Origin: an uncultured Bacilli bacterium | Lineage (GTDB): Bacteria > Bacillota_I > Bacilli_A > RF39 > UBA660 | Length of the DNA: 64,000 nucleotides | Direction: 5' to 3' | Assembly: GCA_947632415.1 (NCBI GenBank) | Contig: CANRPB010000001.1 | Location: 19,549 to 83,548, forward strand | Part shown: one piece after another, positions 2-42,008 of the stretch | Layout: the number at the start of each line of letters is the position of its first letter | Position numbering within the stretch: the first letter of the stretch is position 1 | Position numbers and translations under genes: made by a program | Notes under the pieces: model-generated | Told to the model about the DNA's origin: nothing | Seen by the model: the letters and a program-made list of their open reading frames with translations, nothing else | The model's database searches: none

Positions 2-3000
2 ATGAATAAGCAGTAGACCGACCCCAATGAGTTGATGAACACTCTAGAAGATAAGGAAACCGATGCTGTTGACAATCAGACAGATGAAGATACCGATAAT
101 ACTGAAGAGTATGAAGATGAAGTAGATGCTGAAGATGATAATGCTAGTCTGAACCTTGGATTCACCGAAGAGCGTGATTCATTGCAGCGTAACATGTGGA
201 ATAGTGCTGATATTACTACTAAAATACTATTTTGGGTGATACCACAAGATACTGTTACTGGTAATAAACTCAATTACATGGGTTTAACAGATTATGCTAA
301 CCCAGCTTAGATGTATATCAAGTTTACTGAGTTACTACAGGATTGTGCCAGTGAAGAGTAGATGATGGAGATACTGAAAGAGAATGCAGTTAAAGATAGT
401 TCAGTACAGGCTGTATATGAGTACCTTACTTAGGATGATGACCCTGAAGTAAATCAAGCATTACAGAACAAATTCTTCACTTCTACTTGTAGGTATAGAC
501 ATAGCTTTGAGAATACTACTTACGAACAGGAGTTTGATGAATACGGTAATGTAGTTGCTGTTACTGCTAGGAGTTATAATGGTAACATGAATGAAACTAC
601 TACTAAAGTCAGATATGCACTTATACGTCAAATAACTAGTGCTTTAATCAACCGTGCTACTAGACCTGATAATAATCAATATAAGAGTGCTAATGCTAAA
701 CAAGCCAAAGAAGCTATATCTAAACTGATAAATGCTTTAGCTGGCGTTAAGTACAATAAAGGCGAGTTAACTAAGCGATTAGCTGAATTACTTAAGTTAT
801 CCTATGAAGTAAATGGTTTCGGTATGCTTGTAGATGGTGACTATGACTTATCACAGTCTGTAGACATGATTATGAGTTATATCTGGGATGAGAATGGTGG
901 TGTATCTACTGGTTAGGTTGATAATACGGCACTCAGGAGTTTGATAAGTGTATTCAACATCATAAATAACAATGTTACTGGTATTACTGGTGAATCAGTT
1001 AAGAATGATGAAGTTAGTGTTAAGCAGCGTATAAGGAAGATAATTGATGAGAATGTAGAGTTATAGAACTTCTTAAAGAACATTAGTTCTTATGCACCTA
1101 GACAAGCTAGGATGATGTCTTAGAACGGTCCTAAAGGTGTTAGGATATACACTATTGGAGCATATAACTACATCACTAGGTTATTCCAATTATGGACTAA
1201 ACCTATACGTGGTGCATTATCCAATTGGCGAGATGCAATAGCTAAAAACCCATACGCTGGTCATTCAGTTTGGCTAAAGAGCGGTAGATTACCTAAAGCC
1301 AAATTGAATACTCGTCTACAGACTATGACTTCAGATAACTTTAATAGCGCACAATCAGATAAGTATGTTAGTCCTGATGTAGAGCTGATAAATCGTATGG
1401 TTACAGTACTTCAAGTAGACAATTCTGGTAAATGGTTAGGTGGCCATGCATTCCCAGTATTGGCTAATAAGAAGTTCTCTGCTGATTTAACTGGTTTGGT
1501 TATAGAAGCATTAGAAAGACCTGTTCATGCAGTAGCAACCGCAAGTGGTAAGTTTAGTTACGATATAAACATCGGTGCTAAATAGGTGTTTGCTGGTTAC
1601 TTCTTAGATGAAGTAGCTGCAATAAAGGATGCTAAAGCTGCTAGAGATAACTTCATTGAAGTTATTAATCGAGTAAATGGCACCAAACACACTGTTCAAA
1701 GTTTCTCTGAATTAAGTATACCTGAACAGACTAAGTTGCTTACTGCTAGTGAAGCGCAATCGGTTGAAGGCCTTCATGAGATAAACAATGCTCTAAATAA
1801 GTTAGTAGTAACATATCACTTTGAGTCTACTAAGAATGAACCGGTATATGACAAGCAAGGTCGCGTGGTATCATTCAATACTTCTCATATAGACTTACGT
1901 GAAGGAGCTGGTTATGGTCATAGACACTTTACTAATGTAGCAGCTAGGTTAAGTGCTAAAGGTATAGACTTCGATACGTTGGACATCAATAATCCAGATT
2001 TGTTGAATGCTATAGAAACTGAAGTATTACAACCGGGTATAGCTGATACTATAAAAGCAATGGAGTCTAGAGGTGTTAGTAGTTTAATACCTACTAACTT
2101 GGTTAGTGACTACGCTAAGATATACAAATCATCTGACGAATATACCACCGAATTACTAATGTTGGCTACATTTGCTATTAGGCACATGTCTGATATGCTC
2201 GAGTATGAGAAGTTGGTATAGGGTGATATGGCATACTTTGGTAAAGGTGGTAAGCGTTATCGTAAGACAATTGATGGTATGACTAAACGTTACTCAGGAC
2301 CTGTATCTACGTTTGGTTTGAATGCTTCGAAAGGTACTAGACCTATGTCTTTGACAGCTGATGACACATATGATTTGAGTAATAGTAATGTATACCAATC
2401 ACTTACTATATAGACTACTAAGTTGATAGACTACGATGTATTTGAAGGTTTGGTAAATAGGTCATTAGGCTTACCCGTATAGATAGATTATAGCGTAGAC
2501 ACAGAAGAAGGTGCAGTTACTCCATCATTCAGTCATGAGCAACTGTTAGGTGAAGATGGGTTACTTAAGAAAGAAGTACTCAATGGTGCATTTAAAGACT
2601 ATACTGTATTCAGGAAGTAGAATGAAGATGGTTCATACGATGCTAGTGTTGATACTGCAATCGCTAAAAGTATAGTTAAAGACGTATTAAATCGTTATAC
2701 TGGTTATCTGTCACAAAACTATACTGATGCTACCTCGTATATATCATCAACCATGTTTAGGGAATTAAGGCAGCGTAGTGATGATGGTTGGACAGACATT
2801 CAGGAAGCTTGCTGGTTGTTCATGGAACACTACGATAATCTATGGTAGATGTATAATAACCGTGAGCTGACTAATGACTGGAATGCTATGGTTTGGGCAG
2901 CTCATCAGTTAGGTATCGATGATGAGACATTAAATGGGTTTAGGATTGATAGTGATAGACTATATAATCCAGCACATAATTTTAATTCACCTGATAGGCT

Positions 3001-6000
3001 GAATAGCCCTAAACACAGGGAACAGCGTGCTAAGTACCGTGGTAAGATATTAGCTTACTTGGAGGATGAGAATGGCATACCTAAGATAGATACTACACCA
3101 ATGAAGTATCTATACTACGGTAATAAACCGTAGTTTGATACTGATACTCCACTATATATACCTATCTATGACAAGACTGCATTGGTACCAATGTTCAAGA
3201 TATTCACTGAAGATCATGACGCTGAACATCTATATCGATTGATGCATGACTCAAATACGCAATTCGTTAAGTTTGATAGTACTACTAAGACTGGCGGTGG
3301 GTTTAGTTATCAGTTATACGATGAGAATGGTAATTTCAATAGTAATTTGAACTTAGCACCTAGACAGTTACAGTACTTTGACCAGTTAGGTAAACAGCTC
3401 GATACTGATGCTCATACTAACCCGAATAGTACATTGTTGACCCAGCTAACTAAGATCTCAATGCTTAATACTGTCGGTAACATATATTCATTATCTGGTA
3501 AACAGTTAAATGGTAAGCAATTAAATGAGTTATATGCTGCTACGTTTAACTCACTCACTAGAGATGGGTTTGATCGGTTTAAGCGTACATTTGGGTTCAA
3601 TAGCGAAGGTCAACTTGACGAGGAAGGTAGGAGAAAACTGGTAGCTAAATTAAGGAAGATACTTGAAGATTCAGGTGCATCACAATCAGTTATAAACTCG
3701 TTTGATTTAGATGAGAACGGTGATTTTATAACTACACCAGCTCTATTACCTAATGGTAATCAAATATAGTCTAGGTTATTATCTCAAGTAGGTAAGATTA
3801 TAGTTGATACGCACATTAAAGGTTTACCTTTATATCAGGTTGTAAGTGTTGGATTTGATCAAGATCATCCGTTAAAGAAAGGTGTTTCCTTCGATAAGGA
3901 GCTGTTATCGCCTGGTGATATTGATGAGAATGGAAATACAGTCACTAGGATGCAAGCTAGAGTATCTATACTACTGTTCAACGATGTCATCAACGAAGCT
4001 AAGAAAAATGCTAAGTTAAGTAAGAAGTATAATGGTTTAACTAGTTTCTACGATAAACGTAGATTCTTACTTAACAATAAAGATAAGTTACCTTCATTAG
4101 TATATCGTGTGCCTACACAGAGTCAAAACTCTGTAATCCCAATTGACATAGTTGATGTTATGCCAGCATCGCAAGGTGCTGTTGCTCAATTACCTACTAC
4201 ACTTACTGCTTTAACTGGTGCAGACTTCGATATTGATAAACTGTATACTGCAGTATTTAATTATGATATAACTGATGATGGTATTGAGAAAGTAAACTAT
4301 ATGGACAAGTATAAGACATTTGATGACTTAGTTGCCCATATGGACGAACTTAATACTAAACAGAAAGAGAATCTGTTATTGGATATATTCCAATCAGTGT
4401 TGACTAGTGATAGTAATTTACTGCATACTACTGTTCCTCTAGACGTATGTACTGATCCAGTAAAATCGGTTATGACTAAAGAGGTTAAAGTTGAAGGTGA
4501 TAATACAAACCATGACGGATTCTCATTGACACCAGCGCATCAAGCACAAATGCGTGAGCAAAATGCTAATTCTGATACTACAATTGGTCCTATGGCGCTT
4601 AACTCTGTATTCCAATACTATTTGCAAACCACTGGATTAGACTTTATAACTGATCCGTAGTTAGAGAAATTAGGTATACACGGTTTAGGTCATTCATCAT
4701 TGACTGTCAAGGATACTATGCGTATAGCATATTTACTGGATGTTACTTCAGCAATGATTAATGCCTCTGTGGATGCTGCTAAAGACAATTACATTGGTAG
4801 AGCTAATATTAATAGTGGTACTTATGATGTACTTAACTTTTTAATTGCTAGTGGTTTCGATTTGGATACCTTTAGATTCATAGCTCAGCCAGGTGTAAAG
4901 TAGTATGTTTCTGAATAGCTGCGTGGTTCTAAAGATGCAATATTTAAAGTTAAAGCGGATACTGCCGGTGTAGGAAGTGGATTTAGTATTCAACCAGATC
5001 TATTTACTACAGAGAAACTTAAGGCTGAATTATAGAATCCTACTAGAGAGGCTCAACAGTGCTATGTTTCTGCATTTGCATATATTCAATCTATTGCGTC
5101 TAGGTATAGACAAGCTATATCAGTAGCTTAGGTAGATACTAAGAAATATGGTAAGAATGTAACTGAATTAATGGCATTCCTATAGAATGTAGATGATTAT
5201 GAATCAGATTATAACTTAATCTTCTCTAATCCAGATACTCTGTTTGAGAATTCATTCTTAAAAGAGAAGTTAAATGCTATTAGAGATGCTATGGGCATGT
5301 TTAGTGACATATTCTTAGAGAACTCATAGTTGTTTAAGGATGCTAGTACTAGGCTAAGTGATATATTCGGTAAGCGTGGCCCTTATAGTAAACAATTGTT
5401 ACGTAGAGCAGTGCCAAAGCTTAAACAAGCTATCTTTAAGATATTCTTTGATCAGTACATAGTTAATCGTTTCTCTTCTCCAGATGGACAGATAAATTAT
5501 AGTCCGTTATATACTCTATTCTGCGACCCGAAATTATCAGTAGTTGCTAGATATGACCACATAAAGGAACTATGCGAGAAAGAGCATAATATAGGTTCAG
5601 TATTCTTTGAGATAGTCAAATATGCTAGAGCTCGTAAGAACTCAAATGCGCCTAGGTTCTTTGTAGTTAACAATGCAATTACTACAGATCCAAACCTTAA
5701 ATAGGCTGTATAGGATAGTATAGCAGAATTATTCCATAGTGGTAATCCAGAAGTAAGACAATGGATAACTGATGCTGCTGTTATGTAGTTCTATCAGACA
5801 GGTGGTACTGATACCACATCAGGTACTGCAGTCAAATCATCGTTCTATGATATGCTTCCACCACAAGAATTAGGCAACATTGAAGCTAATATGGGTAATG
5901 GTAATACTACATTCAATGAGTTTGTCAAGTCTGGTGACTATTATGGTGACTTAGATCAGTTAGTCGATGAAGCTATACTTTAGCTGTCTATAAGTGATGA

Positions 6001-7507
6001 TGAGTTTGTGCCAGTAGTTAAGACTTACGGTAAAGCTAATTCATTTAACGTATAGTTAATTGGTGATAAGTCAGTAGCTATAGCTCGTAAAGCATCTAAT
6101 AAGCTCAGACGTGACTATATGGGTAGTAGGTATGCTAAATATATCAAAGTATAGACTAGCAGGGAGGAAACTCCTACATTATACGTACTCGGTAATGTGG
6201 TAAGGACTGAAACTACTGATCAAAAAACTGGTGAACTTAAGGTATATTATAATCCAATATACTTCAAGATGAATAAACTTGGGTATAGACAGTATGGTAA
6301 TATATCCAATAGTATACGTGTAGATGGTGCTGTATTCTATGATGAAAATGGTATTCCTTATCGTAGGTCATTATTCAATAAGCAGACTCAAGGCTTGATG
6401 AGTGATAACAGATACCATAGATTTACTGCTTAGAACTTGGCACAGCTTGAAACTGAGCAAGTACAATCTAATGGTGTTAAATTGGCTTACAAAGCTAAGG
6501 ATGAAGTAGTAAATGCATTAACTAAGAATGGTGCTAGATACCAGGTATTTGATGTAGACGAAGTTGGAAATGTGTTATTTGATGCAGATAATGATCCGTA
6601 CAGAGGATACTTTGAAACTGGTAACCATAGAGGTACCCAGTTAGTATTATCAAGGTTATCGTAGGCACCAACTGATACTAATGTTCTAATGGTTAACCAC
6701 GCTAAAGAAGTAGGCGCTACGTTCCAATAGTTAGTTAAAGTTGGTGATGAATATAAATTCATTGGTTCTGATACTGAACTTACTGGTACAGTAACCTTAT
6801 TGTTCAACAATCGAAGTGAAATTCAAGAAGCTGCTGATTAGATATTTAGTAAGTATCCTGGTGTAAATATTGTTAAATTATTTGATTCTACCAATCGAGA
6901 AATCATTTCATTGTCTCGTGGTGGTAAGGTTGGCTCAGCAGATAATAGTAGATTAAGATATAGTGCACAATTTACTAGAGAAGATGCTATAAATCATCCT
7001 AATTTACTATACATATTTACTGATAATACCGATAGAACATCTGGTGGTTAGGAATATGGTGAAGGTTGGTATAAAGACAAGTATGGCACTGGTGGGTTTG
7101 GTAGCAGGCGTAATCCAACTACTGCTGTAGTACGTGGTTTGCCTAATGCAGCTCCTATATCAACTATGAAGTGGTTCTATAAAAATCACGGTCTAAGCGA
7201 TTATAAAGCTGCAAGATGGACAGATGCAGATATGAATCAAGTAATGAATGTTGTTAGTGATGAAGTTAGAGATATATTGAATCTATGGGAATCTGGTAAG
7301 TTTGACGCTGTAGTATTCCCGAATGAAGACTTTTTATTAAATAGCTTGATCGCTGGCATAACTGAAACTCGTACGCCTCAATTGTATGCATATTTTAAAG
7401 CGGTGAAGGAATTTCTCAGTGACACTATAACCGGTAAGGTTGGCGATATGTTATCGGATATAAACAACAAGAAAGATTCTGAAGACCAAAAGAGTAAAGA
7501 GTGTTAA
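2..7507 (+). CDS. Giant virion-associated protein with RNA-polymerase-like DxDxD motif. Continuous only with TAG read as sense. May start at ATG 2 or upstream of the window.
   Basis: 13 track ORFs (32..310 through 7139..7507) all lie in frame 2. Gaps read codon by codon (310-587, 916-1304, 2413-2849, 3769-3950) contain only TAG stops. The frame closes at TAA 7505-7507. DFDID motif at 4223-4237. Confidence 0.8.
4223..4237 (+). other. DFDID (DxDxD) candidate metal-binding motif of the crAss-like virion RNA polymerase family
   Basis: Codons gac ttc gat att gat in context TALTGADFDIDKLY. The assignment to the phi14:2 gp66-type RNAP family is from memory of published work, not from a search. Confidence 0.6.
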
Positions 7508-7510
7508 TAT

Positions 7511-10500
7511 ATGTGCCCAAATGTGAATAATAATGAAGTTGTTGAACAGTTTAACTAGATTGTTCAACAACTCGGTGGGGAACCACTTAGTATTGAAGAG
7601 TTTAAGTCTTCAGAGCTGAGAAGTAAGAGAACTGGTAAAAACTACGCTGCTATGGAGGCTGCCTACCGTATATGGAATTATATGAACGGTGAAGTAACCG
7701 ATGCTAGTACAGCTATAAACCAGTATACACAATCATTAAATATACCAGTTAGATAGAAAGTAGCTGAGGTTAACCGTCGTAGTCCAATAACTAATGCTGC
7801 GGAACATGCAGCATCTACAAGGATTTCAAGCTTACTAGCTGATTTATACCCTGAATTATCAGTTGAGTATCGAAGATCATTAGAAGGTGGTAATTTAGGT
7901 GAAATAGACTTAGGAGCATTAAAAGTTTTAGTTGATTTCGTGAACGGTAGGGCTGATACCCTACCACACGAATATGCTCACTACTATTATGCTATGTTCT
8001 AGAACTCAAAGATAATGAAGGAAGGTATCAATGTCTTTGGTTCTGAAGAAGCATTAGTATCAGCTATAGGTAGTAGAGTTGCTGAGTTAGATGGTAAACA
8101 GCGTAGATGGTACCAAAAGTTTTTAGACTGGATTAAGTCATTCTTTAGTACTGAATTACGTAAGAAAGCATTATTAGGTGCTATAACTGATGCATTCCTT
8201 GAAAGACGTGATTTAGGTAATAGAATTTATGAATTATTTGGTGTAAGACATCAAGCCGCAAGTAACTTAAGCGTAGATGAAGCATAGTTAGCTTTAAGTA
8301 AAATGGCTAGCGATTTAGTATTTGATGAAGCATCACATACTTACTCGTTACGTGGTAGCAGCATAGCATTAACAGCAGTTAGTGATTTAAAGACTAAACT
8401 CGGCTATAATAATTACGATGATACGCTAGAAGATGCTGACTAGAAAAAACTATCAAATGACGCTAGAACACGTGGTACAATGATCCATGCTGTACTTGAG
8501 GATACTTTCAATGGTAAGTTTAATCTCAGTAGATACTCTAATATCAGTCAAAGAGCTGCTATCAAACTGAATCAGATAGCTGAGAAACTATTGGTAGACT
8601 ATGATTTCGTAGCATCAGAAGCAATGATGTACGATGAAAGTATTCAAGCTGCTGGTACCACTGACTTGATACTACGTGATAAGAAAACTGGTGAATATGT
8701 AGTACTTGACTATAAGACTAAACTAGTAAAGTATAATGGTAAAGAAGAAAAACCAAATGGTAAAAGATTTTGGGGATTCTCTTATGCTACTAGTAAGAAC
8801 AAAGGTCTTAAGTCTAGCTCAGATGCATATAATTTCCAGACTAAGCTGTACCAGAAAATGTTATAGAAGCTTGGTTTGAATGTTACTAAGCGGGGTATAA
8901 TACCTTTAGTGTATGAAGTAGATGAACGAGATGGTAGTTGGTAGATAACTGATATTAATACTAGCAAGATATTTGGCTCTGATATAGACGAGACTGGTGG
9001 ATGGTCTGGTATACCGATTAATGATAAGAAAGCAGGTGTACAGTGGATGTCTGAAGATACTACAGTTAATAGGGATATTAATGCTAAGTTATATGAAGAT
9101 TATTCTGATTTTGCTACACCTGAAGCAGGTAAGCGATTTGTAGCTGCTATGGATGATGCATTCAATATCATCGCCAAGATACGTAATAAACTAAATGCTC
9201 AGATTGCTATAGCTACACGTCGTGATCGTAAATCAGCTGCATATAGGGGTAGAGTTGCATTGGCTAGAGTAGATAGTTCATCAGAATTAGATGCTATGCT
9301 AGCTTATATGCAGTATACTCAAGATTAGCTTAATAGAATGGTAGAAGTCCTATAGGATTTATCCAAGCAAGGTGAGAATGCTCAGTGGTCATTAGCTAAA
9401 TTAGCTTAGTACTATCAGATAGCTGAATCAGTTAATGTGCTTAATAATATAAGTAGTTTCTTAGCTGGTAATGAAGACTTATTAAATAAGTCTGAAGTAT
9501 CACAGTTGACTAGAGCAGTAAATCAACTATAGACTTCAGTAAGTATCATTAAAGGTTACTATGATAACTAGGGTAAGAGACTATACTTGAATGTTATATC
9601 TAAAGGTGTAACTGCTTATAGGCAGCGATTGATTGAAAGGTAGGAAGCTAAGTATACTGAAGAACACCCACAGTAGAAAGGTGAGTCTGGTAAAGCATTC
9701 GTAGCTAGACGTAAGGCTTACATGGACTAGTGGATATAGGATAATGAAGATTATCTAACTAAAGAATAGAACAAGTGGTTAGAAGCTTAGACTAGGATAG
9801 CTGATAAGAGCTTTGAAGCTAATGCTATAGGTTAGTATTTCTCTTCAGTATATGAGTCAACAGACCCGTTTGTCCAATCAATGGTTAGGATGTACGATGA
9901 AGGTATGGAAGAAGTAAACCATAAGCGTATATTCATGATGAATAGACTTAATAAGTTAGTTAAGCAGTACTATAGTGATTACGGGTATAACTCATTATCT
10001 AACTTCCGTAAGATGTACGATGATTTCGTTGAGATAACTGAAGACGGTAAGTGCTATTTAGTTGGTAATGTTAGTGCTTAGTTTTTAAATGCTCGAGAAA
10101 AGTTTGAATATGAGCTAAAAGGTTAGACTACACTTACTGCAGAGGAACGTAGAAAGGCTAGAAGGGAATGGTATGACGAGAATAGCCCTGTGAGCGATTT
10201 AGAGGCTTATAGCGAGGACTTCTCTCATTAGCTGGAGGGTTACCTTACCGAGTTAATAGAGTCCGAAAATGAGCGTTAGAAGCTGTTTAGGAACATACTA
10301 GATAACTTCAATAAAGGTAAGCTGAAAGCGAGTTGGTAGAAGTTCATATTTGATAAGAATGGACCTGTAGCTAAGGATAATAAGATTAATCAATATGAAC
10401 TATGTGATTTCTTACTTGAGTTGTAGCGTACTCTAGATATTAATCACAGGAAACCTAGTGATAAGTATGCTAATGAGAAGTATGATAAGATGATGCAACT

Positions 10501-12355
10501 TGATGAGAATGACAGTAAGCGTAAACTATGGGAAGCATTATCAGAGATAAGTAATGATGAATATCAATAGTATAATCTACCATTACCACTGTAGTTACGT
10601 GGTAGACTACCGTCTATAGTTAAAGGTAAACTTGAATAGGCTGTAACCCATTCAGTTGGTTCTGCTGTTAAATTGGGTATATAGGATGCATTCTGTTTAA
10701 TGGAGGATGACTATGAACTGATACATGGTGAGTTCTATGATGAAAATGGCAATAAGATATATCAAGTACCTATGCCGTATACTGGCAAGCGTATAACTGA
10801 AGATAAATAGTCATTCAACTTACCTGATATATTCCTTAGATATTATGAAGCTGCTAACACTTATAAGGTTAAGCGTAACTTAGAAGAGTATATAAAATAT
10901 ACTTAGTCTATATTAGCTACTAGACGTACTTATGAGAATGATTAGGTTAACTACGGTAATCCTGAAGAAGGTACTAAGTATGTTGGTAATACTAAGAAGT
11001 TATTTGATGCTTGGGTAGATCAGGTGTTCTATAATGAGCGTATAAAAGGTAGGGGTTAGCTTAATATAGGTAAGTATAAGGTAGAGAAAGCATTGATTTT
11101 GAAGGCTATAGCTAAATTCTCATCAACTAAAGCGATGGCTGGTAATATTGTATCAGCGGTTAATAACATATTAGTTGGTGATGCCCACGGATGGGAAGAA
11201 GCTGTAGCAGGTAAATATATCGATCTTAAGAGTTATCGTAAGGCTCATAAGATGTTCATGAAAGCTATACCTTAGATAATATAGGATGCATTCAGAGTTA
11301 CGCCAGAAAATAAAGTTAATAAGCTGTGTTAGTGGTTCCACATATTTGATGGTAGTGAAGGTGTTAGTTTACGTGGTGCTATGTCTAATAGTCCTGGTAA
11401 CTATATCTATGCATTAACTGCTTTGGGTGAAAGATGGATATAGGGTAAGTTCGTTATAGCTTACTTCTTGAAAATGAGAGCTAAAGATAAGGATGGTAAT
11501 AACCTTGGTTCTATGTGGGATTTTGTTGATTTTGATGAGAATAACCAATTAACAGTTAATGATTAGAGAGTAGCTAATTTTGATGCTGGTACTCAAGCTA
11601 AGGTTTCATTAATGCTACGTAAAGTATCTATGGGACTTAATGGTAACTATGATGGTTAGAGGGCAGCTGTAGCAGTTGAAAGTAATGCTTTAGGCTGGTT
11701 TGGACTTGCTTTAAGACGATGGATAGAACCGTTTGTAGCTAGACGTTTAGGTCGTGAAACACATGATGATACACTAGGTACTGTCAATACTGGTATGTAT
11801 CGTACTTTCCGTAGATATATGTGGAATGATGCTAGGTTGGAATTGTTATAGCATATGCCTGAATTCTTAAAACATTTCTTTGGAGTATAGGCTAAAGATG
11901 TTAATGAACTTAAGCGTAACTTTAGGAAATGGGCTGAATTACATGACTGGGAGAAAGCTAACATTAAGCGTACTTCTGTTGAACTTGGTTTAGCTATGCT
12001 GGCATTGTTGATTTTTGCTGGACTTGGTGGTAGTGGTGGAGATGATGACCAGAATAATTTCACTAGGTTTGTCAAATATTAGTCATATAGACTTTATTCT
12101 GATTTGACTTTTGTTGCTAATCCTGTTTCCTTTACTAATATTTTCCGTGACCCATTCCCTGCACAGAAGCTTATTACTGATGTAGCTAGTGTGGTTAATT
12201 AGTTAACTGATCCTACCGAAGAGTATTAGAGTGGCAATCATCTATTTGATAATAAACTGATTAACAAGACAGTTAAGTTGATACCAGGATCTAATCAGAT
12301 TTATCGACTTCAAAATATTCAAAACGAAATTAATTACTTTACTAGAGGAAGATGA
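7511..12355 (+). CDS. Second giant protein (about 1614 codons) with HExxH, PD-(D/E)XK-like and C-terminal hydrophobic segments. TAG read as sense.
   Basis: ATG 7511 lies 3 nt after the upstream TAA. 5 track ORFs share frame 2. All gaps I read (7511-8015, 8287-8480, 8866-9047, 9328-9881, 10081-11093, 11275-12355) contain only TAG. Stop is TGA 12353-12355. HEYAH at 7967-7981. TDLIL...VLDYKT...FQTKLYQ in 8480-8866. Confidence 0.8.
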
Positions 12356-24344: not shown

Positions 24345-24974
24345 TTATTCGTTAGTTTCTGTTACAGTTGCTGTTACATGAATTTCGGTAGTATCATCAT
24401 TCAAACCACACTGTCGTAAATAATCTGACTGCAAACGCTGATTCATGTCAATATATCCACGAACCGTTTCAGCCAACTGCATACACTTCCGTGACATTTC
24501 TTCATAGAAGTTAAGAACATTCTGATTAGACAATTTAGTCAAATCATTCAACATCGGTAATTCTTCAGCAGTGAAAAACATCGGCTTTGAACCCGGTTTA
24601 TTCAACCGTTCAATACATTCAATAACGTTCTGGCGTGTTGCTTTAGTAAATTCAGGTGAAACCATTTCAAATACTAAAGACGGATCATTCTTCTTTTCGT
24701 TCAATACGATTTTCGGACGACCATCTACATCTTTCTCCAACAAAGATACTGATTCAACATCAATAGCTTTAAGGATATAAGCTTTTACTTCCTGACGGAA
24801 AGTATTCTTACCTGTAGCTACATCTTCCTTATACTTAAGATCTGGTGCTTGTGCTACGATTGTAAATATCTGCTGCCCAAAGAACGGGCCATATTTCTGC
24901 GCAGTCTGGCGATATCGTGCCATAACCTGTGCTGCTAAACTCGGTGCAGTTGCACTCTTTACTGAAACTTCCAT
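24345..24974 (-). CDS. Hypothetical protein
   Basis: 209-aa ORF immediately downstream (- sense) of the 2.1-kb ORF-free region. Confidence 0.65.
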   Translation of the reverse strand: MEVSVKSATAPSLAAQVMARYRQTAQKYGPFFGQQIFTIVAQAPDLKYKEDVATGKNTFRQEVKAYILKAIDVESVSLLEKDVDGRPKIVLNEKKNDPSLVFEMVSPEFTKATRQNVIECIERLNKPGSKPMFFTAEELPMLNDLTKLSNQNVLNFYEEMSRKCMQLAETVRGYIDMNQRLQSDYLRQCGLNDDTTEIHVTATVTETNE

Positions 24975-27116
24975 ATAATTGTTCCTTTTTGAGTCCGTAC
25001 TTGATATACCAATACGAACAAGTTATACACTATGTTAATAATCTCCTCACTGTTCGGTCATTTACTGGTTACTCAATTATGGAGTAAGTGAATTCAATCA
25101 CATAACCTACTAAGTTTCTATGCATGATAATAAACTGTTAGAGTAATTTGAAAATATCTACTGATAAATTCTTTGATAATAGTTTGTTAATATAATTTTA
25201 TCGTCCCGTTTCGACGGTTAAGATTCAATTTTTTCGATGCTTAACGCACCCCTCACCGTAATCTCATATCGCGATTAGATGCAATATGAAAAACTAAGTC
25301 AATGGCATCTTTTCAGCCTATTAGTGTTTCCGGGTATTACGACAATCTACGCGATTGAAGGTCGTTTATCTAACGTTACTAAACTCACAAGCTCATTGCA
25401 TATAGCATGACCCACTTGTACCATTTCCAGGATTTCTTTGTTTATACTGCACGAACATTAGGATTTCCACCTATCATCGTTCCCTTGTTTGCTCATGGAA
25501 TAATTTTCGACATGAGTGTACTATTAACCATATAGAGACAGTATATGAATTGACACAGGATGCTAACGAATCAGCGTTCTCTCACATCAGTAGTTGCGGC
25601 TACTAACTTTACGAGTGTCTTAACGGTCAGCAATGTCGGTTGGCAGTCGGGGTGGCTCGTACTCCTTAACTTCTATCTTACAACAATAGTTTGAAATCTC
25701 TGTACTACCATTGGACTTCCCATTTATTAATGATTAACAATCATGACACGCTTTGGAGTCGTGGCGGGTCAATTACTAGCCAAAACAACTTCTTAATCTT
25801 GTATTACATCTAATACCCAGTAAGTTATTGTACTCGATTTTTATTTTGTACGATGGTCCTTATCCAAAATCCTGGAATGGACTAGTCTAATTTCCAAAGG
25901 TATTTACATATCTTGAAATACTTAAGCTCTGCTTGTTTTTAAAGGAGTTTTCAAAGCATCTCCTAAATTCATTTTTACTACGTAATAACACTTGCTAAAG
26001 GTGTTCGCTTCTAAATTCAGGGTTAAAGCGCCCTCATAATCGCATTTTAGGCTTTTATTGTTTTTGCCTCGTCATTTCTCATTGTATTATACTCATCTAC
26101 ACGACTAAACTCATGAGTCACCTTAGACTTGAAAGACGGTATCAATCTCATATACCTCATCCCTTATACGTAAGTTCTTTTGCAGCACACTAGTTACGGT
26201 AATGCACAGGATTGGCTCCTGCTCCACGATAATCAGTCGTATTTCTACGGATCATTGCGTTTCCAGCTTTCATATCCTTACTTTGTATAAGTATGTACCA
26301 TAACACGGTTATCCTTACATTAGTATCAGTAATTTCCTCCCTTCATATATGCAAGTTCCAACATCCACAATTGCATGTTGCATCACAGCTGATGTGCATA
26401 GAACACTAGAGTTAGCCTATTTTCCTATCTGGACGTATAGTTGACGCTTTTGTTGACCGATTTTGGAGACCGGTTGTGCCTGTAATGGGCAGTATTTGGT
26501 ATGTTTCGGCTTCTCTTTCCAAAGGATTAGCCCAGGAACCGGATTGTCCCTGTTTCAGCATCGTGTTCATACTCCTGTTTGATTCTGCTTTTGATAAACT
26601 AATAACGAGTATAAGGATTTCGTTCCTATTTTGGAGATTGTGGATATTGTTACTAAGTAGTTTTATTTGTTTATTCTACTAACTATATCTCTCCGATTTG
26701 AATTAATTTATGACTAGGGTATCTTCTTGTAGCTCCTAAATCAAGGGTTCTTCACATTTAATATCGCCAGCCGGTTCTCATACTATTTGTGTGGGCTATT
26801 CACCCTCTCCCACTTTCCCTACCTTTTTCACCAGTATGGGCTATTATCCTACCTTTTGAGTATCTCACCGTTGTTGCGGCTATGGAGCATCTCATAACTA
26901 CTCCTGACATATTCTCGGATTCTGTATCTTTCGGGCTATAACTAATGAGTTAAACTCCCTGACGGGCGCGACCAGTACTATTGTGTACTTTACCGCATGA
27001 CTTCCCCGGAGTGATTTACGCTACAGTTTTACTCCTCTCGTACTATGATATAATTATAGATTTTTAAAGTGGTTATTATCATTAACTATTTACCACTAGG
27101 CATTTCTCGTCTGCCA
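24975..27116 (-). other. 2.1-kb ORF-free region. Candidate large structured non-coding RNA or other non-coding element. Strand is inferred from skew and neighbours.
   Basis: Only one ORF of 60 aa or more in six frames (26476..26682, low complexity). All three - frames near 27060 hit TAA. 26761-26880 counts A19 C37 G20 T44 (47.5% GC, 67.5% pyrimidine on +), versus 19/60 GC in the adjacent ORF (27121-27180). Confidence 0.4.
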
Positions 27117-27503
27117 TTAATTATTCTGTTCTGGTTCTAAACTGATAATTTTACCTGTTATTAGGTCGATTGTTGCAACAATCTTATTACCTTTACAAAT
27201 ATCTACGAATTTATTTCTTATATCATTACTACTGATATAATCAATAGGATCCATACTCTTCGCGTTAAAACCATCCAAACATTCACAAGCATTACTTACA
27301 GACAAATGTAAGTACTTCTCTGAATATAAACAATTTCTTATACTCGCACATGTACTATTATAAAGTGAATCAGAATTATCTCCATTTATAATAAAATAAT
27401 CTGTTTGAGCATTAACAGAGGTCAGTTTTGCTCTGGCCTCTTTAAGCTCCTTTATGATACGAGACAACCGTATCATTTGTTTAAGTATAACCTTATTGTT
27501 CAT
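27117..27503 (-). CDS. Hypothetical protein
   Basis: 128-aa ORF. TAA stop. Confidence 0.6.
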   Translation of the reverse strand: MNNKVILKQMIRLSRIIKELKEARAKLTSVNAQTDYFIINGDNSDSLYNSTCASIRNCLYSEKYLHLSVSNACECLDGFNAKSMDPIDYISSNDIRNKFVDICKGNKIVATIDLITGKIISLEPEQNN

Positions 27504-27894
27504 GATTCTTTACTAATTGTAATATAGATTGAGGTCGTTCGTCATCAGGTACCCTGCCTATAGACTTAACATATGGATACCCTGTTGAATTCTCTTTCTC
27601 TATTATTTTAGTTTTCCACTTAACTACTGGCTTTGGTTCGCCAGTAGTCTTTACATTCACAATTGCATCTGTTGTTCCTTTTACGGACACGTTTAATGTA
27701 GCTAAATCTATTTCTACATCAATTTGGTCTACAGATTTTTTCTCCTCTTTATTCACTATAGGGAACTTAGGTAGTTCCACAATTGAGGGAATTACAGGCT
27801 GTGCCTGTACAACTTCTGTAGTTGCAAATAATTGTCTGCCAATAAAGACACTAACAACGAACATTACCGCTACAGTTAATATTCTCCTATTCAT
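27493..27894 (-). CDS. Hypothetical secreted or membrane-anchored protein
   Basis: N-terminal hydrophobic segment ILTVAVMFVVSVFIG. 133 aa. Confidence 0.6.
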   Translation of the reverse strand: MNRRILTVAVMFVVSVFIGRQLFATTEVVQAQPVIPSIVELPKFPIVNKEEKKSVDQIDVEIDLATLNVSVKGTTDAIVNVKTTGEPKPVVKWKTKIIEKENSTGYPYVKSIGRVPDDERPQSILQLVKNHEQ

Positions 27895-27940: not shown

Positions 27941-29428
27941 TTAAACCAGTTTATTTTTTTTCTCCGGTTCAGTAGCTGGATATTCTCCTTCTTTAGGAGC
28001 AATCAGTGTATCTTGACAGTATTCTGCAAGACGATCAGCAGGATCACGATACAGATTAATAATCTGCCCTACTACTAGGCGTAAATCATCTTCAGTGAAC
28101 TTTTTATTTGGTTTATCAAAGTAATTAGTTCTTACACTACCAAGAATCATGCGAGCAGCTTTACGATCACTTTCTATTTGAGCTTTCTTATTCTCTTCAA
28201 GTCCTTCAGTAGATATGTTATAATCGTTGAATAACTTAGAGATATATTCTTCACCAAGTATACCAGTAATTGCTTTCAACGCTTTATCTTCTTTGGGATC
28301 AAGCTTCTCGTTATCTTTCAGTTTATAACGGAATTTAGTTGTAAGCAATTCACGTAACGCCAATGCTACTTGCTCTTCAGACCAACCAAGTTTACTCATG
28401 TGATAGTGCAATATGGAATGCGCCATACACGGTGAACCGGTTAGTGATGTATAAGTATACATAGCCTGACCAAGGCCACTCATTAATGCGGTCGGCTCAA
28501 TAAGTTTAAATATTTCTTGAATCCAATAATCAACTCCTTTATCATCTAAAGCGAGTCTCTTATCAGTATCATTTTCTTTGCCCAAACAATAGACACGATA
28601 CCACTCAACAGTATTTACTATATTTGCGGCAGTGTTCTTTGTCTTAGTAATAAGATATTGAAGTGCTTCCTTCAATTCTTCTTCAGTAGTGATCTTCTTT
28701 GGATCAAGCTCGGGTACAACTGATACTACTTCACCTTCTTTCGGTTTCAAATCTTCAGGTATTTCAGATTTAGCGAAATCAAGTTTCATTTGACCGTCAT
28801 TACCCGGTAACGCTTTGGCAGGTGCTAGTTTAATACCTAACATGCTTGCCATGTTCTGCAAAGGTACAATTTGATCTTCACTTATGAGCAGATTCAATTC
28901 ACCTTTCTCATTCTTACTAAGCAATTCTTGACGGACATCGACTAATGCCAATAGAGTAACAACATCGATACTCTTCATCAAGTCACTATACAATTCCGGA
29001 TAGTTCTTAACGAGTTCTTCATTCTTACCATATTTTTCCCACATAACATGAGCAAGCATGGCTTTACCATCTATACTAGATGTTGGTGCACTCATGGGAA
29101 TACCCGTTGTTCCACCAATTAAAGAAGCTGCACGTTCCAATGCTTTCTTACCTCCTTTTAAGTCAGTATCAGCATTTTCTGGAATGATAGTAGGAATCTT
29201 TTCTGTCTTCTTTTTAGGCTTATCTGGAGCTTTCTGGGTGTCCTTCTTTGCCTCTACTTTTACTTCAGTAGCTGTAGGAGTAGTCTTTACTTCCTCTACT
29301 TTCACTTCTTCAACTTTTGGTGTTTCCACCACTTTAGTTTCTTCAGCTTTTTGCTTAGCTTCTAATTTTGCAGCTTTTTTTGCTGCTTTCAATGCTGCTT
29401 TTCTTTCAGCTTTTGTCATTTCTGCCAT
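27941..29428 (-). CDS. Hypothetical protein with a Lys/Ala/Glu-rich N-terminal region
   Basis: 495-aa ORF. N-terminus KAERKAALKAAKKAAKLEAKQKAEE, then VEEVKVEEVK repeats. Confidence 0.65.
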   Translation of the reverse strand: MAEMTKAERKAALKAAKKAAKLEAKQKAEETKVVETPKVEEVKVEEVKTTPTATEVKVEAKKDTQKAPDKPKKKTEKIPTIIPENADTDLKGGKKALERAASLIGGTTGIPMSAPTSSIDGKAMLAHVMWEKYGKNEELVKNYPELYSDLMKSIDVVTLLALVDVRQELLSKNEKGELNLLISEDQIVPLQNMASMLGIKLAPAKALPGNDGQMKLDFAKSEIPEDLKPKEGEVVSVVPELDPKKITTEEELKEALQYLITKTKNTAANIVNTVEWYRVYCLGKENDTDKRLALDDKGVDYWIQEIFKLIEPTALMSGLGQAMYTYTSLTGSPCMAHSILHYHMSKLGWSEEQVALALRELLTTKFRYKLKDNEKLDPKEDKALKAITGILGEEYISKLFNDYNISTEGLEENKKAQIESDRKAARMILGSVRTNYFDKPNKKFTEDDLRLVVGQIINLYRDPADRLAEYCQDTLIAPKEGEYPATEPEKKNKLV

Positions 29429-29876: not shown

Positions 29877-30437
29877 TTAGTTTAACAATTGTTTTAATCT
29901 CTCTCGCGCATTATTTAAACGCGCTTTAACTTGTGATTCTGTAATCCCAAGTTTATCACCTATCTCTTTATAAGATAGATTTTCAGTAGTACGTAACTCT
30001 ATTATAGTCCTATAATGAGGTCTAAGCATTTTTAATGCTTCAGTTAATCGTGAATTAGTTTCATGACCAATATATATTTCTTCAGGTGAATCGTCGGCCG
30101 AACTCCTCACTTGATAGAAATTTTCTTCATCATCTAATTCATAATCATACTTTTCCTTTTTAGTTCTACGAATATAGTCTATACTACTGTTTATAGCTAT
30201 TGTTTTTAACCACATTTCAAATGAAATATGATATGTGTACGTAGCTAATTTAAAATAGGCTTTAGTAAAAGTCACTGATACTAAATCATCAGTTACGTCT
30301 TTATTTCTCACTATGTCATATATGACATTATGAATGACGTGTACGTATTTATTATAAAGCATAGTGAAGGCATTCTGGTCGCCTTCTTTAGCCTTGTTGA
30401 TGAAGACTAAGAGCTGTTGTTTCTCTTCATCTGTCAT
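29877..30437 (-). CDS. ECF-type sigma-70 family RNA polymerase sigma factor
   Basis: Region 2: DLVSVTFTKAY...FEMWLKTIAINSSIDYIRR. Region 4 HTH: LSYKEIGDKLGITESQVKARLNNARERLK. Start taken at MTDEEK (30437), not the track start 30530. Confidence 0.85.
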   Translation of the reverse strand: MTDEEKQQLLVFINKAKEGDQNAFTMLYNKYVHVIHNVIYDIVRNKDVTDDLVSVTFTKAYFKLATYTYHISFEMWLKTIAINSSIDYIRRTKKEKYDYELDDEENFYQVRSSADDSPEEIYIGHETNSRLTEALKMLRPHYRTIIELRTTENLSYKEIGDKLGITESQVKARLNNARERLKQLLN

Positions 30438-30484
30438 AATATTAGGCTTGTTAGTGGTTATAACAATAACCAAACTGTTATAAC

Positions 30485-30868
30485 CTAGAATGGTAGCTCT
30501 AAAATGTATCGGTAATAGTATTCGTACCATTCATTCATGAATTTCTTATATATATCCCATATGCATTCCATGAATTCTCTTTTCATGGGTATAGTTAGTA
30601 TTTTCGGTGATGTATTGTTGATTAGTCCACAGACGATACGTATACGCACGTCTAATGTAACTCTGTGGTCTTTACCTATTCTCTGTAATATCATGTTATC
30701 AAAGAAGTAGATTATATGAGCAACATGTTTATACGATCCAAATGGTTTCTTTTTAATTTCTCTATTTTGAATACGTATAAAAGTGTACCATTCAGGACGC
30801 CAATTAAAATCACTATATTTAGCGCCCCAAACAGTATATATATGATTTGTTAAACTATGTATTACCAT
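30485..30868 (-). CDS. Hypothetical protein
   Basis: 127-aa ORF. TAG stop (cta 30485-30487). Confidence 0.55.
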   Translation of the reverse strand: MVIHSLTNHIYTVWGAKYSDFNWRPEWYTFIRIQNREIKKKPFGSYKHVAHIIYFFDNMILQRIGKDHRVTLDVRIRIVCGLINNTSPKILTIPMKREFMECIWDIYKKFMNEWYEYYYRYILELPF

Positions 30869-31770: not shown

Positions 31771-31799
31771 AATTTAATTGATTTAAATTGTTAATAATG

Positions 31800-31873
31800 T
31801 AGTGAGTAGGAGATTCGAACTCCTTATCTCTTGGTAAAATCCAAGGCTTCACTCCACGCAAAGCTTACTCACT
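31800..31873 (-). tRNA. tRNA-like cloverleaf with a 6-nt anticodon loop (AUUUUA). Isotype undetermined.
   Basis: - strand: AGTGAGT AA GCTT TGCGTGGAGTG AAGC CTTGG ATTTTA CCAAG AGATA AGGAG TTCGAAT CTCCT ACTCACT A. There is no position-26 nucleotide, and the loop is one nt short. Confidence 0.45.
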
Positions 31874-32100
31874 AATCCATCAAGTTCTAACATTTTACAG
31901 GGTCGAGAGCTTGCAACAACACCAAACCTATTTATTACTCGCGGGGATACGACGAGGCTCACCTCTGTTGCTAGACGGAGCTACCCCAGACTTTACTTAC
32001 GCTACTAAGCGGGTATAGTCAGTAACATAACTTGTATTGCCAGTTATTCGCATTATTGACCTATTCTATTTCACATTGTCGCCGTCAAATCCATTTTACC

Positions 32101-32214
32101 CCCGTAGAATGCGTTTTAAGGCTATTTTAAGGCGATTCTAGACACTTTTGAGGTTGACTGGATGATTTATATCAATTTGCATCTAAAATGTCTTAAAATG
32201 GCTTAAAACGCTTA
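32101..32214. repeat. Copy A of the three-copy element. It contains an internal inverted repeat.
   Basis: GCGTTTTAAG (32111-32120) is the reverse complement of CTTAAAACGC (32202-32211). 32120-32154 aligns to 37429-37462 with few mismatches. Confidence 0.6.
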
Positions 32215-32740
32215 ATTATGAAAAATTTAATTAGAATAGTGGAGGTAGAGATCTCCGACAATCTCGTCCGTACGACTGCTCCATAGACCTAACAGTCAAT
32301 TGTGGATATGTAGCCGACCAAAGCTACATACCCTATGGTCTTGTAAATGGTTAGTTCACTATATACTGATCTTGATGATATACGAATGATGACAGCTTTT
32401 ATCCTATACACTGTGATTCGAAGATTCACATCATTCAGTCTATGCTTGATACCACGACTAAAGCTTTTCTCTATTTCTAGAGGACAATCTTATTGTCGCG
32501 ATCTCAGACTTATGATCAGTAGTTCATTGTGGTCCCTCATAACTGATTCAAAGATACTGTATGAGACCTGTTAATTCAGGTCTGTAATGCGACTCAGGCC
32601 CTGTGCGCAATGCAACTTCCGACTCACGCATTAAAGTTATTGATTCAAAGATTCTAAACTTGGAACTTCTTTTTTTATGAAAGTCACTTCAGTGACTTGA
32701 GTAAATAAGCCACGCTAGTGGACTTTTATTTTTAATCGAA

Positions 32741-33211: not shown

Positions 33212-33544
33212 TTTGATTAAGCTTTAATTGATTTAACAATAATTTATTTAACACTCTGTTAGTACCAAATTAAAAGACCTACCCTATTTATTTGTATTGC
33301 TTATTCATAGGAAACCCATTTCCTTCTTTCATAAACTGTTTATAAACAGGTTGACCGTTGTATAGTCCATTGTACTCTTGCATATAGCTTCCATTAGGGT
33401 TCTGGTTATTTGTAGGTCTTTATGTTGATTGGATTCACCACATTATTAAGTTTTAGTTAATAATATTATATAGTTTGGGTAGATACTCTGGCGGAATATC
33501 TACCTCTAACTATCATAGCAACAATAATGAGTATCACCTCAATA

Positions 33545-34615: not shown

Positions 34616-34968
34616 AATTTGATATTATTTGATTAACGGCGTGTGCAAGAGCATTTTGCACAATTTTACATTTGTTTCAGAATAAGTACTAGTAATGCTC
34701 ACTAGCGTTAGTGTAACAATAAACACCATAAAACACATTTACTTTAGTTCTTGATACTCACTAATTACGAATAGCAGGTATAGTAATCAGCTATACCTTA
34801 TCACGGCATGATTTTAACGCCTGCACTAATACTTATCTAAAAGGCTAGCACTTTTGATAAGATATGAGCCCCACATGTTTGTTACTGATTCTCACAGTGA
34901 AAGCGTGTATACTATTCTCACGAACCATATACACCATACGTAATTATGAACAAAAGCATTATTAAAGC

Positions 34969-41930: not shown

Positions 41931-42008
41931 TTCCGCTTGATGTATGATTGCTTAGCATAATTCCCTCTAAAGGAATAGGACCTGGAGCAGAACCGGGAGC
42001 GGGGACCA
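41931..42008 (+). tRNA. Candidate amber-suppressor tRNA (anticodon CTA) with a non-canonical T-loop and an encoded CCA
   Basis: TTCCGCT TG ATGT ATGATTGCTTA GCAT A ATTCC CTCTAAA GGAAT AGGA CCTGG AGCAGAA CCGGG AGCGGGG A CCA. All four stems pair (some G-U). U33 and A37 flank CTA. The T-loop lacks TTC. Confidence 0.45.

Follow-up and report, generated by a model that had tools for sequence, protein, structure and literature searches.

Which element occupies a stretch of 2142 nt without an appreciable open reading frame (ORF) in an otherwise tightly packed phage genome? The stretch extends from position 24975 to 27116 of the window, the whole piece of DNA of 64,000 nt analyzed here, which belongs to a delta crAss-like phage from the subfamily Loutivirinae of the Suoliviridae. 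A preliminary description of the window had proposed that the stretch encodes a giant structured RNA on the minus strand. Conservation in related phages and covariation support this proposal. The region 24975–27116 is the gene for a predicted, densely structured noncoding RNA (ncRNA) of about 2.1 kb on the minus strand, which represents a new class and matches no known family. Judging from the comparative evidence, a functional structured RNA is almost certainly encoded at the locus. The position of the RNA, its length of 2.0–2.5 kb, and the order of its domains are conserved across the Suoliviridae. All coordinates refer to the window unless a relative is named, and elements of the minus strand are read from high to low positions.

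The locus lacks protein-coding potential

The region 24975–27116 is directly bordered by two complete genes of the same (minus) strand, 27117–27503 and 24345–24974, as the preliminary description had placed it. The longest ORF in its six frames measures 68 amino acids (aa), so that the earlier claim of an ORF-free region holds. TAA, TAG, and TGA are each present in all six frames, at about one stop per 11–15 codons. Therefore, recoding of TAG cannot open the region, which had been anticipated, and neither can recoding of TGA. The codon-phase signal is absent (p = 0.86 overall, none in any third of the region); in the same test, five flanking genes have an excess of third-position variation with p = 1e-9 to 1e-31. 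Insertions and deletions (indels) among the homologs of the region are not multiples of three. The region thus has no protein-coding signal, as in a conserved structured ncRNA.

A protein gene that has decayed, is recoded, or is interrupted by an intron would be in line with the recoding of TAG elsewhere in this phage, with its amber-suppressor transfer RNA (tRNA), and with the group I introns known in delta crAss-like phages (PMC7886860). We nevertheless regard such a gene as practically out of the question. All three stop codons are present in all frames, codon periodicity is missing from every third, and the indels are not multiples of three, which also excludes the degraded gene block considered in the preliminary description. 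Furthermore, no intron family is matched at E-values up to 10, both flanking ORFs are intact, each with a start and a stop codon of its own, and the region is conserved rather than decaying.

The composition of the region is less distinctive than first described. The local figures given for 26761–26880, 47.5% GC and 67.5% pyrimidine on the plus strand, are exact, but the GC enrichment does not extend to the region as a whole, which has 37.6% GC compared to 35.3% for the window and is at the 86th percentile of 2142-nt windows. The homologous gaps in other subfamilies have a GC content equal to that of their flanks. The strand skew is not a special feature either: pyrimidines make up 57% of the plus strand both in the region and in the flanking minus-strand genes, and therefore mark the direction of transcription. 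The region contains no meaningful tandem or dispersed repeats, no iterons, and no tRNA, in agreement with the earlier claim.

Covariation points to a structured RNA on the minus strand

The consensus fold of 25 sequences less than 97% identical to each other, calculated with RNAalifold, has an energy of -168 kcal/mol and contains 238 pairs, 107 of which exhibit compensatory double changes. Twelve column-shuffled alignments reach only -1.5 to -18.5 kcal/mol, with 6–51 pairs and 0–8 compensatory ones. In a later alignment of 32 sequences, the number of compensatory pairs is 117, and about 50 helices tile the minus strand from 27115 down to 24994. Pairs were also counted independently in three sub-regions and compared with slid registers and 500 shuffles. 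The domain 26335–26085 contains 48 pairs, 16 of them changed on both sides, and is 99.6% paired, compared to 33–48% in slid registers; none of the 500 shuffles reaches the observed pairing. The 5′ end is 98.0% paired (26–48% in slid registers), a level that none of its 500 shuffles attains. Conserved core 2, located at 25446–25647, is 95.9% paired (14–58% in slid registers), with 15 of its 21 pairs changed on both sides and, again, 0 of 500 shuffles at the observed level. The compensatory changes in 24975–27116 thus go beyond both the shuffle and the slid-register controls, as in a conserved structured ncRNA. Near-invariant single-stranded loops are carried by freely covarying stems.

Several pairs in 26330–26091 are invariant G-U, or G-U alternating with A-U or G-C. 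Because such pairs would be mismatches on the plus strand, they indicate an RNA of the minus strand. In RNAalifold, the sense strand also folds better than the antisense strand. The G-U pairs, the better sense fold, and the direction of both neighboring genes together assign the predicted RNA to the minus strand.

The locus is part of the middle (replication) module, and in relatives the gene for the DNA polymerase is a few kilobases away. This placement would also suit an element that acts as DNA, for instance an origin of replication, a packaging site, or a structure of single-stranded DNA. We consider such an element highly improbable, since about 240 strand-specific, G-U-tolerating pairs over 2.1 kb are unexpected for duplex DNA. 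In addition, the iterons, repeats, and AT-rich unwinding element that characterize origins are absent from the region, and the cumulative GC skew passes straight through it, without the inflection that marks an origin.

The RNA locus is conserved throughout the Suoliviridae

BLAST matches in deposited phage genomes are limited to the Loutivirinae (cr53_1, cr109_1, cr113_1, cr56_1, cr60_1, cr52_1, and cr4_1), with about 68–80% nucleotide identity over 74–92% of the 2142 nt. In each of these genomes, the match lies in a gap of about 2.1 kb without a real gene. The gap is located between same-strand genes for proteins of about 140 and 210 aa; the gene for an ECF-type sigma factor lies upstream of it, and the DNA polymerase block downstream.

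The RNA is better conserved than its surroundings. Only 38–40% of ungapped columns vary in the RNA region, compared to 56–66% in the neighboring genes. The RNA is 73–76% identical at the nucleotide level where the flanking proteins are 50–55% identical in amino acids, and it is still detectable by profile where they are only 23–27% identical. The conservation is patchy, as invariant blocks, such as a 27-mer at 26316–26290, are interspersed with indel-rich ones.

The set of homologs includes 144 full-length sequences from IMG/VR, and others from Logan and ENA contigs. The fragmentary genome MT839577 and eleven IMG/VR contigs, whose flanking protein is 26% identical to that of the window, contain a 2.29-kb gap with two collinear cores recognized by profile. 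A third lineage, L221, with a flanking protein 24% identical, also has a gap with the two collinear cores. The same synteny and both cores (profile E-values 1e-5 to 1e-19) are present in cr50_1 of the Boorivirinae (gap of 2514 nt), and in cr272_1 (2223 nt) and cr131_1 (2037 nt) of the Oafivirinae. Thus, a gene-free gap of 2.0–2.5 kb is retained in a constant gene order in the Loutivirinae, Boorivirinae, Oafivirinae, and further unclassified lineages.

A two-motif pattern derived from core 1 matched 64 contigs of IMG/VR and more than 120 from metagenomes, most of them 95–106 kb long. Gap length was defined as the stretch without an open frame of at least 100 codons, at loci with both borders among the matches listed. 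In 80 further loci of this kind, the median gap is 2129 nt (interquartile range (IQR) 2096–2147). These loci represent at least 11 deep lineages with mutual identity × coverage below 50%, across which the order of the two cores is unchanged and their spacing is similar. The constant gap length, the shared synteny, and the cores indicate a family-wide RNA feature of the Suoliviridae. When the genomes of 185,579 species of bacteria and archaea were searched with an invariant 17-mer, the only matches were three mis-binned crAss-like contigs and eight chance occurrences.

Predicted architecture of the RNA

The predicted RNA spans 24994–27116 of the minus strand, to which all elements described in this section belong, and is about 2.12 kb long, with the helices and pairs counted above. 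It starts 1–2 nt past the stop codon of gene 27117–27503, and some 20 nt separate its end from the ATG at 24974. The 5′-terminal hairpin P1 (27099–27115) has a GGCA...UGCC stem, in which all four pairs changed on both sides, and a conserved GAAGAUAAA-type loop; the distant lineage L191 retains this hairpin with another stem sequence. In hairpin P2 (27097–27093 with 27072–27068, within 27045–27097), four of five pairs changed on both sides. Its loop AUGAUA 27082–27077 forms an H-type pseudoknot with UAUCAU 27050–27045; pairing is kept in 99.2% of the cells of the pseudoknot, and two-sided changes affect five of its six pairs. The following block (G)UNCGAGAGGAGUAAAAC...ACUCC (27008–27044) is invariant within the Loutivirinae. 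It contains helix P3 (27035–27031 with 27012–27008), which never varies and so provides no covariation information, and a short helix (27044–27042 with 27027–25). In L221, the gene-free gap opens with the T-arm-like sequence GGGGUUCGAUUCCCCUC (about 6885–6905 of that contig), where ARAGORN calls no tRNA; the big RNA of this lineage may begin with an element resembling a tRNA.

Conserved core 1 (26750–26925) is detectable by profile in all subfamilies, with nhmmer E-values of 1e-11 to 1e-19 in the Boorivirinae, Oafivirinae, L191, and L221. It is composed of a helix with all four pairs compensatory (26920–26917 with 26849–26846), hairpins at 26880–26867, 26839–26817 (with a UGAAAA-type loop), and 26813–26791, and a stem that closes the near-invariant loop UGAGAACCGGCUGGCGA (26780–26764). 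This loop, UGAGAACCG(N1-3)YUGGNGA, is near-invariant in 39 sequence contexts, carried by at least 10 different closing-stem sequences. The heptamer AUAGCCC does occur three times within 26940–26790, as had been reported; however, it is absent from relatives as a conserved motif, and was rejected as a repeat specific to the lineage of the window.

Core 1 is followed by a gap-rich, hypervariable or cassette segment (26620–26749) with about 27% sliding identity to most relatives. The local-hairpin domain at 26400–26612 includes hairpins 26612–26569, 26599–26587, 26552–26533, 26532–26508, 26474–26456, and 26447–26433, each with 2–4 compensatory pairs. The 240-nt multi-helix junction domain (26091–26330) is closed by two covarying helices, 26319–26311 with 26137–26130 and 26295–26288 with 26166–26158, and accommodates the 27-nt invariant block AAGGAUAACCGUGUUAUGGUACAUACU (26316–26290). 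A hairpin insertion of variable length is in the window the GNRA-capped CGUAGAAAUACG at 26249–26238, which the preliminary description had recognized and whose stem covaries. Further hairpins of the domain are located at 26222–26206, 26205–26187, 26156–26138, and 26118–26091. The next segment, 25860–26040, is a chain of hairpins (26040–26013, 26005–25987, 25964–25943, 25921–25900, and 25882–25869), which have 2–4 compensatory pairs each, with the exception of 26040–26013.

Conserved core 2 (25446–25647) is a junction domain whose closing helix, ACUGCC 25647–25642 with GUGCAGU 25452–25446, spans about 200 nt. The alternative pairing of GACUGCC 25648–25642 with 25720–25714 suggested by RNAalifold was rejected, because it lacks covariation and the deeper alignment, made of 7 deep lineages and 8 Loutivirinae, favors 25452–25446. 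Core 2 contains a hairpin with a GCAA-type loop (25607–25586), hairpin 25545–25531 with the invariant loop CUGUCUC (25541–25535), a hairpin with the loop UGGAAAU (25473–25459), and the invariant tail UUCGUGCAGUAUAAAC (25455–25440). The 3′ domains (24994–25419) consist of hairpins 25419–25387 and 25375–25363, a 9-bp hairpin 25291–25262 (seven of nine pairs compensatory), a 13-bp hairpin 25250–25213 (8 of 13), a nested set 25115–25049, helix 25087–25069 with six of six pairs compensatory, and the terminal hairpin 25018–24994 just upstream of the start region of the downstream gene.

The position of the terminal hairpin, some 20 nt upstream of the start codon of the next gene, together with the shared direction of the region and both its neighbors and the lack of a terminator before the downstream gene, is compatible with a long cis-acting leader or intercistronic element, which would control the translation, stability, or termination of 24345–24974, or the polarity of the operon. 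We judge this very unlikely. Leaders and riboswitches are shorter than about 300 nt and contain an expression platform, whereas the region measures 2.1 kb, about ten times the length of known bacterial leaders or riboswitches, and contains no terminator or anti-terminator. The conserved cores are 500–1900 nt away from the downstream start, the RNA is better conserved than the gene that it would regulate, and no cis-regulatory family of Rfam is matched.

A single giant RNA or an array of modules

A giant structured ncRNA, which would act in trans as a folded particle or ribonucleoprotein (RNP), is probably the best explanation overall. We propose that the RNA would be co-transcribed with the flanking early/middle genes located downstream of the ECF-type sigma factor gene, made early or in the middle of the infection, and would work in trans as a compact folded particle or RNP. 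Through its conserved loops, the RNA would form tertiary contacts or bind other copies of itself, or proteins of the phage or the host. By analogy, it might be a scaffold or sequestering RNA, as proposed for GOLLD and ROOL, to which it is unrelated; a scaffold, cage, or RNP-type role drawn from this analogy is conceivable, albeit doubtful.

The alternative is a tandem array, in which one precursor of about ten independent modules of 100–300 nt would be processed into separate RNAs. The well-supported helices all span about 330 nt or less, and helices longer than 500 nt are at the level of the control, which would be expected for an array. The modular conservation, with invariant blocks between indel-rich ones, the different location of a sub-hairpin within 26330–26091 among lineages, and the presence of separate small RNAs nearby in the same phages, namely a permuted transfer-messenger RNA (tmRNA), RAGATH-9, and hatchet, are all consistent with it. 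Moreover, a 225-nt module is 96% identical between L073 and L191, the remaining RNA of which does not align, so that modules appear exchangeable on their own. Nevertheless, total length (IQR 2096–2147 nt), module order, and core spacing are kept in at least 11 deep lineages, and the contiguous structure fills the gap from stop codon to start codon without spacers. The RNA region contains no terminator-like sites on the minus strand, 13 promoter-like sites compared to 15 expected, and no self-cleaving ribozyme matches. Ribosomal RNA (rRNA) and GOLLD likewise consist mostly of local domains, even though they are single large RNAs. We therefore lean toward one long functional RNA, and regard the processed array as rather unlikely.

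The shared module is located at 6579–6773 of L191, and the profile positions it matches, 264–473, overlap the hypervariable segment 26620–26749 only in part. Its high identity suggests that distant phages have recently exchanged one RNA module by recombination. Very long-range helices were sought by mutual information and a diagonal-run scan, and none was found beyond the control. Two 8-bp candidates, 26917–26909 with 25458–25450 and 26408–26401 with 25579–25572, were set aside, as they are invariant and offer no covariation to judge by.

Several observations weigh against the single giant RNA, or against parts of the case for it. The energy of single-sequence folding is ordinary compared to shuffled sequences (z from -1.7 to +0.6); the case for structure is thus evolutionary, built on conservation and covariation, and neither thermodynamic nor compositional. 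The count of 617 G-U cells against 51 A-C cells among predicted pairs is biased, as the sense strand was used for predicting the fold. Helices spanning more than 500 nt form 5 runs, compared to 7 in the parallel-register control, and hence provide no support for a single global fold. The sole hint of self-association is the loop tetranucleotide 26253–26250, which straddles a stem boundary and reads as the palindrome GAUC in 22 sequences and GGCC in 4. Palindrome swaps of this kind have been used as support for kissing-loop dimers in OLE and GOLLD; the one observed here is probably a single evolutionary event. The neighboring proteins give no functional clue: apart from an ECF sigma factor, Pfam and PHROGs searches of nine of them found no match, and their charge and isoelectric point (pI) are ordinary and not notably basic, except for one 261-aa protein with a pI of 10. 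The AlphaFold model of the conserved 495-aa protein encoded two genes upstream of the RNA has no fold match in the PDB (Foldseek, best E-value 0.13). Finally, no phage of the Suoliviridae has been cultured (PMC10136315).

Comparison with known RNAs

Rfam 15, which comprises 4227 families including GOLLD, ROOL, OLE, introns, and rRNA, gives no match in the RNA region at the gathering threshold when the window is searched, nor beyond noise at E-values up to 10 in 24500–27600. The noise amounts to three matches of 12–16 bits, far under the gathering scores. The big RNA of the distant homologs L191 and L221 is unmatched at E-values up to 0.1. The covariance search called for in the preliminary description thus agrees with its failure to place the RNA in a known class, and neither OLE, HEARO, and raiA nor other large ncRNA families of Rfam 15 are matched. 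The predicted RNA is a class without a detectable relative. No description of the locus was found in the literature searched on crAss-like phages and ornate RNAs, including Yutin 2021 and the 2023 review of Crassvirales, although a description elsewhere is possible. The ncRNA of UG27 reverse transcriptases was dropped as a candidate, as there is no reverse-transcriptase gene nearby.

GOLLD, a giant ornate RNA of phages and prophages, is longer than 800 nt and forms a 14-mer nanocage, whereas ROOL, also from phages and prophages, is about 580 nt long and forms an 8-mer nanocage; both contain many pseudoknots, assemble as RNA-only nanocages, and are of unknown function (PMC12286853). The new RNA resembles GOLLD in being phage-encoded, noncoding, and very large, in its covarying helices and pseudoknots, in the division into a conserved and a more variable part, and in the tRNA and tmRNA genes of the same genome region. 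However, the new RNA exceeds GOLLD about 2.5-fold in length, and the GOLLD covariance model matches neither the window, nor 24500–27600 at E-values up to 10, nor L191 and L221 at E-values up to 0.1. GOLLD occurs in phages of Lactobacillales and Mycobacterium, within a tRNA island, whereas the new RNA belongs to Crassvirales of Bacteroidota-type gut hosts and is embedded between protein genes. GOLLD forms an oligomeric nanocage; for the new RNA, the GAUC/GGCC swap is the only lead toward oligomerization. Like the new RNA, ROOL is phage-borne and ornate, with multiple pseudoknots and no protein partner known. It differs from the new RNA, which is about four times longer and has no Rfam match, in its taxonomic range and genomic context.

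The new RNA belongs to the size class of rRNA (16S about 1.5 kb, 23S about 2.9 kb), with which it shares many local domains, richness in purines, invariant single-stranded loops on covarying stems, and expansion hairpins of variable length; however, it has no match to the SSU or LSU families of Rfam. The sequence UAGUACGAGAGGA at 27045–27033 (minus strand) is identical to positions 2653–2665 of Escherichia coli 23S rRNA, in the sarcin-ricin loop, where most relatives of the window read AGUUCGAGAGGA. It belongs to the block that is invariant within the Loutivirinae and is at best a weak lead. Mimicry of rRNA was rejected, because this 13-nt identity is unconserved and, as the longest match to E. 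coli 16S and 23S rRNA, is reached by about 7% of shuffles.

Group I and II phage introns are large and structured like the new RNA, and known in delta crAss-like phages (PMC7886860). The new RNA, however, matches no intron family at E-values up to 10, contains no intron-encoded ORF, and lies outside any gene, between complete flanking ORFs that are conserved separately. The permuted tmRNA, RAGATH-9, and hatchet RNAs share the strand, the early/middle region, and the phage family of the new RNA; they differ from it in their length of 100–400 nt and in being described Rfam families, none of which it matches.

Neighboring genes and other RNA genes of the phage

The upstream syntenic gene (27117–27503) encodes a protein of 128 aa and has the same position in all lineages, and the downstream one (24345–24974) encodes a protein of 209 aa; neither product contains a known domain. 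The gene at 29877–30530 encodes the ECF sigma factor, the sole Pfam or PHROG match among the nine neighbors of the RNA locus. The 495-aa protein (27941–29428, minus strand) has 89 homologs and no domain. In its AlphaFold model (predicted local distance difference test score, pLDDT, of 71), a low-confidence N-terminal tail rich in lysine, alanine, and glutamate precedes an all-α body. In every lineage the protein keeps its synteny with the RNA, even where its identity has fallen to 23–27%.

Within the homologous regions of relatives, ORFs of 145–184 aa have been annotated or called as hypothetical proteins (4270–4707, plus strand, in L002; 1770–2207, plus strand, in L003; and 2685–3239, minus strand, in L202). 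These ORFs are unconserved between relatives and probably spurious. In present phage annotations, the RNA locus is either blank or filled with such spurious small ORFs.

The early region of the phage is unusually rich in RNA genes, including a permuted tmRNA, RAGATH-9, a RAGATH-20-like element, a hatchet ribozyme, and tRNAs. The permuted tmRNA-like gene at 31997–32299 (minus strand) scores 34 bits with RF04321 (E = 2e-4), below the gathering score of 47. The syntenic tmRNA is above the threshold in L221 (57.5 bits) and L191 (49 bits), and a tmRNA is annotated in cr50_1 and cr131_1, which suggests that the Suoliviridae have a two-piece tmRNA of their own. Beside the tmRNA-like gene, at 31799–31873 (minus strand), ARAGORN predicts an unusual tRNA whose anticodon has 2 nt. 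The minus strand also encodes a sub-threshold RAGATH-20-like element (32500–32581), a RAGATH-9 RNA (33272–33432, 140 bits) that is present also in the distant L191, and a self-cleaving hatchet ribozyme (34806–34904, 83 bits). ARAGORN also finds a tRNA-Pro(AGG) at 21922–21994 (minus strand), some 3 kb downstream from the big RNA. A tRNA with a CTA anticodon (amber suppressor; labeled Pyl by ARAGORN) is located at 41931–42008 on the plus strand. Many standard-code gaps, such as that of 1574 nt at 10082–11655, close once TAG is read as sense, which together with the CTA tRNA fits a recoding of TAG in late genes.

Implications for the Suoliviridae

To our knowledge, the RNA is larger than every described structured ncRNA of bacteria or phages except rRNA. 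We speculate that a single RNA of 2.0–2.5 kb is a new RNA machine, that is, a ribozyme, an RNA-only assembly, or a phage-specific RNP, needed by all Suoliviridae for infection, and would be the largest structured ncRNA outside the ribosome in a bacterium or bacterial virus; we consider this plausible, yet not quite probable. With a size in the class of rRNA and about 2.5–4 times that of GOLLD and ROOL, the RNA is a target for cryo-electron microscopy, RNA-structure benchmarks, and the discovery of ribozymes and RNPs. Its near-invariant motifs, UGAGAACCG..YUGGNGA, the CUGUCUC loop, and UUCGUGCA(G/C)UAUAAAC, provide a specific marker of the Suoliviridae.

In the human gut, delta crAss-like phages (Suoliviridae) form the largest group of the crAss virome (PMC7886860). 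The RNA is kept by every sampled branch of this family, one of the commonest among human-gut phages, and each tightly packed genome spends about 2% of its length on an RNA better conserved than the neighboring proteins. This share of the genome and the conservation above that of the neighbors imply an important and wholly unknown step in the infection cycle of these phages.

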